The notes beneath the pieces were generated by a model. That model was not told where the DNA came from. It worked only from the letters and a program-made list of their open reading frames with translations, and ran no database searches. Of a stretch of 20,000 bases of DNA, positions 8,792 through 10,842 are shown piece after piece. This DNA is from an uncultured virus (IMG/VR IMGVR_UViG_3300023180_000040) (lineage: Duplodnaviria; Heunggongvirae; Uroviricota; Caudoviricetes), in the IMG/VR virus record IMGVR_UViG_3300023180_000040, positions 57,081 to 77,080 of that record. One strand, 5' to 3'. Within the stretch, counting starts at the first letter, position 1, and each line of letters opens with the position of its first letter. The translations under genes and the position numbers were made by a program.

Positions 8792-8922
8792 TATACAAAC
8801 CTCTTTGGGTTGGGAACAGTATTGCCGACCTTGCTTCGTCGCTTCTTTGTCTTTCTGATAGTTACCTTAGCAATTCTCTTTGGAGTTTGGTAGTTAGAAG
8901 TCTTTGTCTTACGCAAGTTCAT
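8791..8922 (-). CDS. Small highly basic protein (~41-43 aa)
   Basis: MNLRKTKTSNYQTPKRIAKVTIRKTKKRRSKVGNTVPNPKRFV; AGGAGG upstream (spacing fits a TTG start at 8916 better). Confidence 0.6.
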   Translation of the reverse strand: MNLRKTKTSNYQTPKRIAKVTIRKTKKRRSKVGNTVPNPKRFV

Positions 8923-8926
8923 CCTC

Positions 8927-9274
8927 CTAGTAGTAATCATCGTAGTCGCAAGGCTGCGACTCTTTCTCTGCATGATACTTGTAATCGTAGTGCGCTTCAA
9001 GGGCATCTTCATACTCACTTTCTGCCATTTCACAGCACGCATCAAAACTTAGTTCGATCACGATATACTTATCAGCAGCCTCTGGCTCATCCTCAACGAT
9101 TGAGTCATACAACTTTGTCATTTCTTCCTTGCTGCCGAATTCATCGGGAATCCTGTCATAGTTTATGATCTTTTCAGCCTCGGCATCATACTCGTAAAGG
9201 CCAAAGAGTCCACGACTATCAATCTCTTCTGCTGCCTTCTGAAATGGGTATTCTGGCGGGTCATACCAACTCAT
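8927..9274 (-). CDS. Hypothetical acidic protein
   Basis: AGGAGG RBS before ATG 9274 (MSWYDPPEYP...). Confidence 0.75.
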   Translation of the reverse strand: MSWYDPPEYPFQKAAEEIDSRGLFGLYEYDAEAEKIINYDRIPDEFGSKEEMTKLYDSIVEDEPEAADKYIVIELSFDACCEMAESEYEDALEAHYDYKYHAEKESQPCDYDDYY

Positions 9275-9281
9275 AGTGTTT

Positions 9282-9431
9282 CTAATCCTCCTTGATTTCA
9301 GGGACGCAGGAACCACAGTAAGGAAGCCCCTCTGTCCAAGTCACAGCCTTAGTTGCTGGATTGACATAAGTAACATCCTTCTCTGGAATGGTGTGTCCAC
9401 ACATGCATTTGATTGTGTCTGTATTGTCCAT
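9282..9431 (-). CDS. 49-aa zinc-ribbon-like protein
   Basis: GAAAGGA RBS; KCMCGH...PYCGSC; first gene after the tRNA-like RNA. Confidence 0.7.
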   Translation of the reverse strand: MDNTDTIKCMCGHTIPEKDVTYVNPATKAVTWTEGLPYCGSCVPEIKED

Positions 9432-9457
9432 ATTATTTCCTTTCTTTGATAAAGCAT

Positions 9458-9555
9458 AGCCCCTAGCGGGAGTCGAACCCGCGATAAACTTCCGCATAAG
9501 CATCACAAGCGTCCTTGTGTGATACCGGCGTCGTTGCCACTAGACCATTAGGGGC
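9458..9555 (-). ncRNA. tRNA-like RNA without a canonical anticodon arm
   Basis: 7-bp acceptor stem GCCCCTA/TAGGGGC; D arm GTC-TAGTGGCAAC-GAC; perfect T arm GCGGG-TTCGACT-CCCGC. The anticodon region is replaced by a long hairpin. No encoded CCA. Confidence 0.8.
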
Positions 9556-9561
9556 ATAAAT

Positions 9562-9589
9562 ATTATAGACGGTTCCACAGTCAAGTCAA
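9562..9589 (-). promoter_or_regulatory. Sigma70/SigA-type promoter of the tRNA-like RNA
   Basis: TTGACT (9589-9584), 16 nt, TATAAT (9567-9562); G9555 is 7 nt downstream. Confidence 0.8.
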
Positions 9590-9679
9590 GTGGTGTCACC
9601 AAATTGGATCTACACCTACCTGCTCACCCGTCACCGACAACCGATTCCTTTAGTTATTATATTTAGTTATATTATGTAG

Positions 9680-9846
9680 CCCGAACAGATCATTATTCGG
9701 GTTGTTATCACATGGGTCGTATTGCAGGTTTATGTCAGGTCTAGATGGACAACCCCCATGCGTGTTGCCCCCTGCTTTCCCCCGTTGCCACGGAGTTCGG
9801 ATTATCTAATTGGTGGCAACCTCTTAGACTCTCCCATAATCCCGCT
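9680..9846 (-). ncRNA. Putative structured RNA downstream of the hammerhead cleavage site
   Basis: ORF-free; stems GTTGCCAC/GTGGCAAC, GCAGG/CCTGC, GGGCAAC/GTTGTCC and CCCGAA/TTCGGG; loop pairing CGCATGGG/CCCATGTG. Confidence 0.5.
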
Positions 9847-9894
9847 GACGCCTCACGGCGTTTCGTCCTCTTTAGGACTCATCAGAGCGGTTAT
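9836..9894 (-). ncRNA. Type I hammerhead ribozyme
   Basis: CCGCT-CTGATGA-GTCCT(AAAG)AGGAC-GAAA-CGCC(GTGA)GGCG-TC^-AGCGG: complete catalytic core and three perfect stems; GUC cleavage between 9847 and 9846. Confidence 0.95.
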
Positions 9895-10063
9895 TGTTTT
9901 CAAGATCATACTGAACCAAGTTAGCAATTTCAAGTGCCCTACGAATCTCACTCTTAAAACCCGGTGTAATAACAATAGTGTCCTCTGGCTGACTGTCCAT
10001 GCAAATAGCATTTAGCCATCCAATAATTTCAGCAAGTTCTTGTGCCTCTTTTAGTGTAATCAT
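9872..10063 (-). CDS. Hypothetical protein whose last codons form the hammerhead core
   Basis: MITLKEAQEL...NNNRSDES*; codons CGC TCT GAT GAG TCC TAA overlap the ribozyme. Confidence 0.6.
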   Translation of the reverse strand: MITLKEAQELAEIIGWLNAICMDSQPEDTIVITPGFKSEIRRALEIANLVQYDLENNNRSDES

Positions 10064-10108
10064 TATATCAACCCACAAACATAGTCGTCTTGATCTGCAT
10101 TATGTTCT

Positions 10109-10525
10109 CTATCCGTAAACGATGTTTCCGAAAGTAGCAACCTGAACAACAACATCAGCAACATCACCATCAGCGTAACCAGAATCGTCGTTAGCAACAG
10201 CCTGACGAAGATACTCAACGAGATAATCCGCAGCCTGAACCTCGTTGTTGAGAATCTTAGAGATTGCCTCTACAACCTTATCTACATTGACCTCATGAAT
10301 AGTGTCTGCCTCGTCAGGCTCACGAAACTTTACTGAATACCAAATCTCATCAAGAATGTCGCTTGCGTTATTACCCTCACGACTAAGATAGTTTGCCCAA
10401 TAGTTTGCGCTGCCGTAATGGGAATCAAAAGCCGTCATAAGAAGATCACTAACCAACTTGTCCGTAACATTTACAGATACAGTTACCTTACCAACAACTG
10501 TCTTATTCATTTCATTCTCTTTCAT
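10109..10525 (-). CDS. Conserved phage hypothetical protein
   Basis: NYWA motif and C-terminal DGDVADVVVQVATFGNIVYG, recognised as a recurrent phage family; start could be 10510. Confidence 0.75.
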   Translation of the reverse strand: MKENEMNKTVVGKVTVSVNVTDKLVSDLLMTAFDSHYGSANYWANYLSREGNNASDILDEIWYSVKFREPDEADTIHEVNVDKVVEAISKILNNEVQAADYLVEYLRQAVANDDSGYADGDVADVVVQVATFGNIVYG

Positions 10526-10538
10526 TAGATTGCTTAGT

Positions 10539-10591
10539 ATTTTACTCGTATACGTTTTGTTGTCAAGACATAAATGTAATGACTTTGTTAG
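10539..10591 (-). promoter_or_regulatory. Boxed early promoter, copy 4
   Basis: CTAAC AAAGTC ATTAC-N9-TTGACA-16 nt (..GAG)-TAAAAT. Confidence 0.8.
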
Positions 10592-10842
10592 TCCTGCGGA
10601 ATGTCCTTAAACCAATCAATCTCAGAAAGAATCTCATGGTTAATAAACCAATCTACAAAAAGAGTTCCGTCCCTATCATTATCATATCCGACATAGCCGT
10701 TATTAACGTATTCCTGCTCGTAGTCGGAGTCATAATATAGTTCCCAGAACTCGTTAGTATCCATATCGTACATCGCGTCTGCTCGCTCCCGAATCCCACA
10801 ACAAATACGCTTGTAATGCTCATCTGAAATAATCTTAGGCAT
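10588..10842 (-). CDS. Hypothetical acidic protein
   Basis: AAGGAGG RBS before ATG 10842 (MPKIISDEHY). Confidence 0.75.
   Translation of the reverse strand: MPKIISDEHYKRICCGIRERADAMYDMDTNEFWELYYDSDYEQEYVNNGYVGYDNDRDGTLFVDWFINHEILSEIDWFKDIPQD

Follow-up and report, generated by a model that had tools for sequence, protein, structure and literature searches.

The window, a 20,000-nucleotide stretch of viral DNA analysed here as a whole, carries on its minus strand a true type I hammerhead ribozyme that is part of an uncatalogued RNA cassette, and the last codons of a 63-codon gene are read from its catalytic core. As judged by comparison of related lineages, the overlap with the coding sequence is genuine and recurs without being required, and the ribozyme is inherited with the non-coding cassette downstream, not with the gene upstream. 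The explanation that we hold to be probable is that the downstream RNA receives its 5′ end from the ribozyme and that the gene overlap is tolerated packing.

Table 1. Features around the hammerhead (positions are counted from the first letter of the window)
Feature	Position	Strand	Basis or remark
tRNA-like element	9458..9555	-	ARAGORN; acceptor stem, D and T arms, extended anticodon arm, no encoded CCA
Promoter-like site overlapping motif B	9562..9589	-	11 of 12 consensus matches
Conserved motif B	9568..9642	-	invariant ends GGTTGTCGGTGAC ... GTGGAACCGTC around a variable hairpin
Hairpin, then A/T-rich linker (to ~9645)	9680..9701	-	prediction only
Folded gene-free domain, closing helix 9845-9835 with 9734-9724	9724..9846	-	uses stem I 3′ strand; z -3.66
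Type I hammerhead ribozyme, GUC triplet, predicted cut 9847/9846	9842..9890	-	core pattern, Rfam, fold
63-aa gene (family X)	9872..10063	-	residues 1-55 conserved; tail N-N-N-R-S-D-E-S read from ribozyme and flank
Out-of-frame TAA directly 5′ of stem I	9891..9893	-	TAG at the same place in three relatives
138-aa gene, PHROG 2355 (E 3e-20), function unknown	10109..10525	-	homologue at the same position in L110
Sigma-70-type promoter-like site	10539..10566	-	11 of 12 consensus matches

On the minus strand, the 5′ strand of stem I (CCGCT, 9890-9886) is followed by CTGATGA (9885-9879), stem II (9878-9865), GAAA (9864-9861), stem III (CGCC/GGCG, 9860-9849, with loop GTGA), T9848-C9847 and, beyond the cut, AGCGG (9846-9842). 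The minimum free energy (MFE) structure of 9830-9900 was the hammerhead, as was the centroid (z -2.3; 5 of 200 shuffles as good), and three helices were predicted, stems II and III closed by loops and stem I open. An initial sequence-only reading had proposed an intact type I hammerhead with every core nucleotide present. Indeed, the CUGANGA and GAAA core is complete, the triplet is GUC and the MFE structure is that of a hammerhead. The Rfam covariance-model check called for by that reading gave a divided answer, in that Hammerhead_1 (RF00163) matched 9841-9891 with 28.5 bits (E 2.2e-4) but fell short of the gathering score of 34; nothing was found at the Rfam gathering threshold. The hammerheads of the related lineages described below score 21-29 bits against the same model, and none of 14 control genomes matched it. 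The window forms the end of a 77,080-base virus record, across which this is the only such core. A second ribozyme core was found neither in this record nor in those of the relatives, and a search for a theta/HDV-like fold gave no HDV-type Rfam match up to E 10 in 8800-10800 or 9560-9850.

The core is invariant across the four lineages except at N7 and the 15.2-16.2 pair. In the alignment, 96.9% of cells are paired with three compensatory pairs, a result that 16 of 500 shuffles equalled and that is statistically weak with four sequences. The ribozyme is identical to that of the lineage L110 at 45 of 50 bases, where the flanks are ~70% identical. The extension of stem I through ATAA/TTAT suggested earlier can pair, but it is absent from the MFE structure and not kept in the relatives; their stem I has 6-7 contiguous base pairs, compared with only five in the window. 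Because the fifth pair of stem II is broken in one of the four lineages, stem II is better taken as four base pairs, closed by a loop whose first base is a pyrimidine and whose last is A. The stop codon of the overlapping gene had been placed across the end of stem II and loop II; its position stands, but with a four-pair stem II it falls within the loop. Passages of PMC11875169 describe a tertiary contact of loop II with stem I in which U1.7 touches the last A of loop II, and which is not essential. The last base of loop II is A in all four lineages and U1.7 is present in three of them; the window has A1.7 and U1.8. Since the U1.7 of the three relatives is missing, the rate of the window ribozyme in vivo is uncertain. 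Its stem I was predicted with a probability of 0.8-0.98 in short, co-transcriptional contexts and was predicted to be open in long contexts. From the intact, covarying core we infer that the hammerhead is genuine and functional in cleavage.

Three related lineages (L110, L120 and L125/L145) were reached by three routes, and the hammerhead is kept in all of them. The order hammerhead, folded gene-free domain, motif B and tRNA-like element is found in all four lineages, the window included. Each of the four records searched (21-82% complete) holds one hammerhead, and one of the four holds family X, to which the overlapping gene belongs. L110 is ~70% identical to the window in DNA and has the same gene order. 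The gene upstream of the ribozyme belongs to family X in the window and L110 and to an unrelated family Y in L120 and L145; a search for family Y returned itself alone. The core is read through in a single frame, xCT-GAY-GAG-TCC, in three lineages (window, L110 and L145), by two unrelated proteins and with three different stop codons (TAA, TAG and TGA). In L120 the upstream gene, a homologue of that in L145, stops 5 bases ahead of the stem I flank and outside the ribozyme, its stop starting 15 bases before the core, just beyond the reach of a ribosome. In a DNA contig from a freshwater relative, 9409-9869 and 10034-10094 are matched but 413 other letters take the place of the 164 in between, so that here too the stretch from the start of the gene to the ribozyme is altered. 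In an unrelated phage, L009 (1540-1390, minus strand), ~40 bases separate a type I hammerhead from a downstream tRNA-like element with no assignable anticodon, a layout that resembles a shorter version of the cassette with motif B left out.

Downstream of the cut, the longest open reading frame in 9846-9555 is 20 codons. The three relatives carry a different domain, with a five-way junction, in place of the domain of the window (L110 5217-5331, L120 6423-6549 and L145 2235-2109, minus strand). The downstream domains of all four lineages folded better than shuffles (z -3.66 to -5.28), and none had an Rfam match, up to E 10 in the case of the window; compensatory change was seen at 6 of 44 pairs of the relatives' domain (three sequences). 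The loops CUACCA and UGGUAG of the five-way-junction RNA could kiss; they are invariant in the three sequences and hence show no covariation. Rfam, with no match up to E 10, gave no support to a resemblance of either the domain or motif B to riboswitches or to RNase P RNA, Y RNA, hatchet, pistol or twister.

Motif B is present in the four lineages, and its model finds those four only among 82 sources; its folding signal is weak (z -1.72). Of the patterns used to search for it, the first gave two chance matches among three and the second gave 28 loci, four of them true (three lineages); none was found in genome contigs. A short tandem, ACYUG-ACUUG, occurs in motif B of the window and L110, and either copy could pair with CAGGU upstream. 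Both hexamers of the overlapping promoter-like site are kept in L145, the -10 only in L120 and neither clearly in L110. The tRNA-like element has no 7-base anticodon loop, and ARAGORN assigned it as Cys or Val with an intron, varying with the settings; no Rfam tRNA match was found in the window. An ordinary tRNA gene at 9555-9458 was rejected, since a cloverleaf with a 7-base anticodon loop was not obtained. The same element is found in L120 and L145, and L110 has a different one, also anticodon-less. In a freshwater relative (run X19) the gene-free segment is nearly unchanged and the tRNA-like element (window 9458-9553) is much shorter and diverged, with many deletions among the differences listed. 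RNA libraries from two studies yielded contigs within the gene-free segment (9630-9802 and 9610-9834); with DNA carry-over possible, these bear on its presence only, not on ends or level. Their depths there (11.4 and 7.4, versus 2-4) are not taken as evidence, and their end points differ. No contig spanned the cut in any of three RNA runs, gaps between contigs not being counted as evidence.

The 3′ strand of stem I is also predicted to form the closing helix of the downstream domain, and this holds in all four lineages despite the two unrelated domains. For the window, L110 and L120, the addition of 120-130 bases beyond the cut lowers the predicted probability of stem I from ~0.9 to <=0.2; the prediction of stem I in L145 is poor at most lengths. 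The energy gap between the two folds is 0.6-3.2 kcal/mol, and the prediction for the window flips with flank length.

The frame 10063-9872 ends R-S-D-E-S-TAA, so that the ribozyme core doubles as these codons exactly as the sequence-only reading had stated, and its TAA (9874-9872) is 25 bases ahead of the cut, the distance given there. Five homologous clusters, 21 invariant columns (the last at D53) and the same gene order in L110 indicate that it is a real gene; no Pfam or PHROG family matched the protein. The tail lacks hammerhead-derived residues in 6 of 9 family X lineages. The closest homologue of the window protein (89% over the core) ends I-E-A-E-L-S-G-E, the closest homologue of the L110 protein (86%) also has another tail, and a further member (P0012), known here as a protein alone, ends R-T-D-E-S. 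The tail-less homologues P0002-P0005, P0011 and P0014 are likewise known here from proteins alone. In a tree for which the tails were trimmed beforehand and P0013 and P0015 (long, repeat-type matches) were left out, the tailed members (3 of 9) were rejected as one clade (p-AU 2e-5, three changes needed); the proteins are short and no branch was starred. The spread of the tailed members would mean repeated gain or repeated loss. Family X loci were found neither in viral contigs, beyond the identical record, nor in genome contigs; two candidates, L106 and L107, were 24-residue chance matches with neither a hammerhead nor DNA similarity.

The record encodes DnaE, RecA, primase, ribonucleotide reductase and a tRNA cluster, and its terminase shares 36-37% identity with terminases from large actinobacterial phages. 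Window positions 9300-10600 gave no blastn match to GenBank phages, and most of the sequencing runs containing this DNA are salt-marsh metagenomes. The hammerhead sits within a minus-strand run of small genes, which by gene size and position appears to be of the early-region kind, and the promoter-like site 10539..10566 is likely the start of the transcription unit. A 10-codon mini-frame (10100-10068, minus strand) precedes the 63-aa gene, its TGA ending 4 bases ahead of the ATG at 10063. The Shine-Dalgarno sequence of the 63-aa gene is a plain AGGAG in L110 and weak in the window; as no clear one of its own is present in the window, the gene may depend on coupling to the mini-frame. Another promoter-like site inside the gene (9933-9905, 10 of 12 matches) has no counterpart in L110. 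Genes for UDP-galactopyranose mutase, a cytidine-deaminase-like protein and a SpoU methylase adjoin the tRNA cluster (record G000 C1, 6253-8560, minus strand), and a longer record of the same phage (G001) has a 3236-aa frame with no Pfam family (L118 2907-12614, minus strand) upstream of the early region. A Pfam scan of 42 larger proteins from the incomplete record gave no RNA ligase, Ro60-like or reverse transcriptase family; a circular-RNA reading, with neither such a family nor a second ribozyme core, was unsupported.

For comparison, phage hammerheads were gathered by two exact patterns (49 and 51 loci), which yields a pattern-biased sample. It held 61 distinct strict type I cores, and the 58 with enough upstream DNA formed 49 upstream-protein clusters, reduced to 39 when 10 whose longest frame was <50 aa were dropped; frames were called mechanically, with a PHROG match for 4 of 10 checked. 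The upstream stop lay at most 5 bases from stem I in 13 of the 39 clusters, in stem I in 10, at the core TGA in 4 and farther upstream in 8; four clusters read through the core and none past the cut. In 31 of the 39, therefore, the stop was inside the ribozyme or within 5 bases of it, and a stop abutting stem I was the commonest true position. The four read-through clusters are the two cassette clusters and the unrelated phages L011 and L027, that is, 2 of 37 outside the cassette. The genes in L011 (1290-1514, plus strand, 74 aa) and L027 (2979-1999, minus strand, 326 aa) end T-D-E-S-stop inside type I hammerheads. In 38 of 61 cores the frame xCT-GAY-GAG-TCC runs into a stop ahead of the cut; for the other open frame the count is 14 of 61. 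The frame bias thus has a plain cause, since that frame oftener meets a stop, supplied by loop II, ahead of the cut. Of 37 hammerheads in a less biased set, 22 had a loop II stop at +11 or +14, translated or not.

Of 102 ordinary gene junctions taken as a control, which misses small genes and is biased long, 33-40% were tightly spaced. As this is below 31 of 39, the clustering of stops may, on this crude control, have more behind it than packing. The mRNA channel of the ribosome is given as 11 bases in passages of PMC7282821, which would put a ribosome on stem I from such stops; 31 of the 39 clusters therefore share the feature that the sequence-only reading had singled out in this gene.

On the favoured explanation, the hammerhead would cut the phage early transcript co-transcriptionally at 9847/9846, soon after synthesis, and would create the 5′-OH end of a gene-free folded RNA of ~290 bases. 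The closing helix is then predicted to take up the 3′ strand of stem I, by which the product would be released with its 5′ end tucked and protected, and the tRNA look-alike is probably the next processing site for host RNase P/Z. The upstream message would leave intact, because its stop is 5′ of the cut. The overlap would arise from gene swapping and tight packing at the ends of whichever gene lies upstream, a junction in the last upstream codons being presumably viable if the stop precedes the cut, as it usually does, in loop II, in the frame xCT-GAY-GAG-TCC. Passing ribosomes would unfold the ribozyme for part of each round of translation and would at most delay, not gate, the cut. Tight packing is the more likely account of the overlap than a translation-controlled switch. 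In its favour are the constant order of the cassette with one hammerhead per record, the exchange of the upstream gene, the stop outside the ribozyme in L120, the freshwater contig, the tail-less family X lineages, the stop positions at other phage hammerheads, the folding of the downstream domains and the RNA-library contigs. Against tolerated packing stand read-through in three of four cassette lineages, which is more than the 2 of 37 outside the cassette, the further family X protein ending R-T-D-E-S and the scatter of the tailed members in the tree.

Coupling of the cut to translation of the 63-codon gene had been the central proposal of the sequence-only reading. Its geometry holds: given an mRNA channel of 11 bases (PMC7282821), stem I, the core and stem II would all lie under a terminating ribosome. 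As a device specific to frame 9872..10063, the overlap is opposed by the linkage of the ribozyme to the cassette, by L120, where it is missing, and by the 6 of 9 tails that lack it, as well as by the loop II stop in 22 of 37 hammerheads regardless of genes and by stops within ribosome reach in 31 of 39 clusters. The overlap is kept in three of the four lineages carrying the element, which is not the constancy of an attenuator-like one. We consider translation coupling unlikely.

A ribosome on the stop would by itself slow the cut, and gating would need a kinetic trap. A translation-gated kinetic switch would supply one: during synthesis of the next 120-130 bases, a ribosome trailing the polymerase would keep hold of the core and of the 5′ strand of stem I, whereupon the closing helix would capture the 3′ strand of stem I and trap the uncut form. 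More of the non-coding RNA would in that case be released while the upstream gene is untranslated, for example in host shut-off or stress. In all four lineages the closing helix uses bases of stem I, despite unrelated domains; this fits such a switch, as do the fall in stem I probability at 120-130 bases, the recurrence of read-through in one frame in several independent lineages and the ribosome geometry (PMC7282821). But the shared bases equally fit product release, the energy gap is small and the window prediction flips with flank, and stem I is poor in L145. L120 has no overlap, with its stop just beyond ribosome reach, and neither the peptide tail nor the upstream gene is conserved; no conserved leader or stalling codons were seen. 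The switch is improbable on this balance, and the broader proposal that phages repeatedly recruit upstream gene ends so that terminating ribosomes sit on the hammerhead, which with the competing helix would form a ribosome-gated ribozyme switch, is doubtful as well.

Ordinary operon punctuation, in which the hammerhead separates messages and the gene-free segment is a long leader and not a product RNA, is more doubtful still. The swapping of the downstream domain between lineages would suit it, and hammerheads that flank prophage genes and cleave long transcripts are described by Perreault et al. 2011 (PMC3088659). However, 34 of 37 comparable hammerheads have a gene start <=60 bases from the cut and the window has none, the 290 bases after its cut holding no frame longer than 20 codons; the conservation of motif B and of the tRNA-like element also weighs against it, as does compensatory change at 6 of 44 pairs of the relatives' domain (three sequences). 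That the window lineage holds an inactive, decaying relic trapped by the downstream helix is highly improbable: it would account for the score below the Rfam gathering value, the five contiguous stem I pairs with no U1.7 and the open stem I in long contexts, but every core base is intact, identity to L110 is 45 of 50 against ~70% in the flanks, the relatives likewise score below the cut-off and stem I probability is 0.8-0.98 in short contexts.

A full-text literature search, with subscription journals mostly outside its range, found no paper on phage hammerheads overlapped by coding ends or on this cassette. The terms 'stop codon' and 'overlap' are absent from the main text of PMC3088659, whose supplements may list overlapping cases. 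Phage hammerheads are common and their purpose is mostly unknown. The locus marks an exact predicted 5′ end of a folded phage RNA missing from Rfam, and it offers a natural matched series on ribosome control, with read-through in the window, L110 and L145 and none in L120. If the ribosome-gated switch were true, the translational state of the infected cell would decide whether an uncatalogued non-coding RNA and a tRNA mimic are released; should translation make no difference, the ribozyme would be ordinary and its cassette unusual. For annotators, a protein tail S/T-D-E-S-stop flags an overlapped hammerhead and could serve to find such cases in protein databases.

In ribosome-dependent attenuators, one of two mutually exclusive helices lies within a translated frame. 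The present locus may likewise have a coding frame over one of two helices, predicted with small energy gaps to exclude each other, but it has no terminator and no conserved leader peptide or sensing codons, its output would be a cut, and one relative lacks the overlap. Theta ribozymes lie at the 3′ end of tRNAs. Like the theta ribozymes beside phage tRNA genes (PMC10879173), the cassette joins a small self-cleaving RNA to a tRNA-shaped element; theta ribozymes are HDV-like, whereas here a hammerhead stands ~290 bases 5′ of an element with no normal anticodon. The locus is also close in kind to the phage and prophage type I hammerheads (RF00163) that cut polycistronic RNAs (Perreault et al. 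2011, PMC3088659), with which it shares the core, the three stems, the open stem I, the early-gene setting and a predicted polycistronic cut, and from which it differs in the gene-free folded RNA and tRNA look-alike downstream and in the overlap with the coding sequence upstream.
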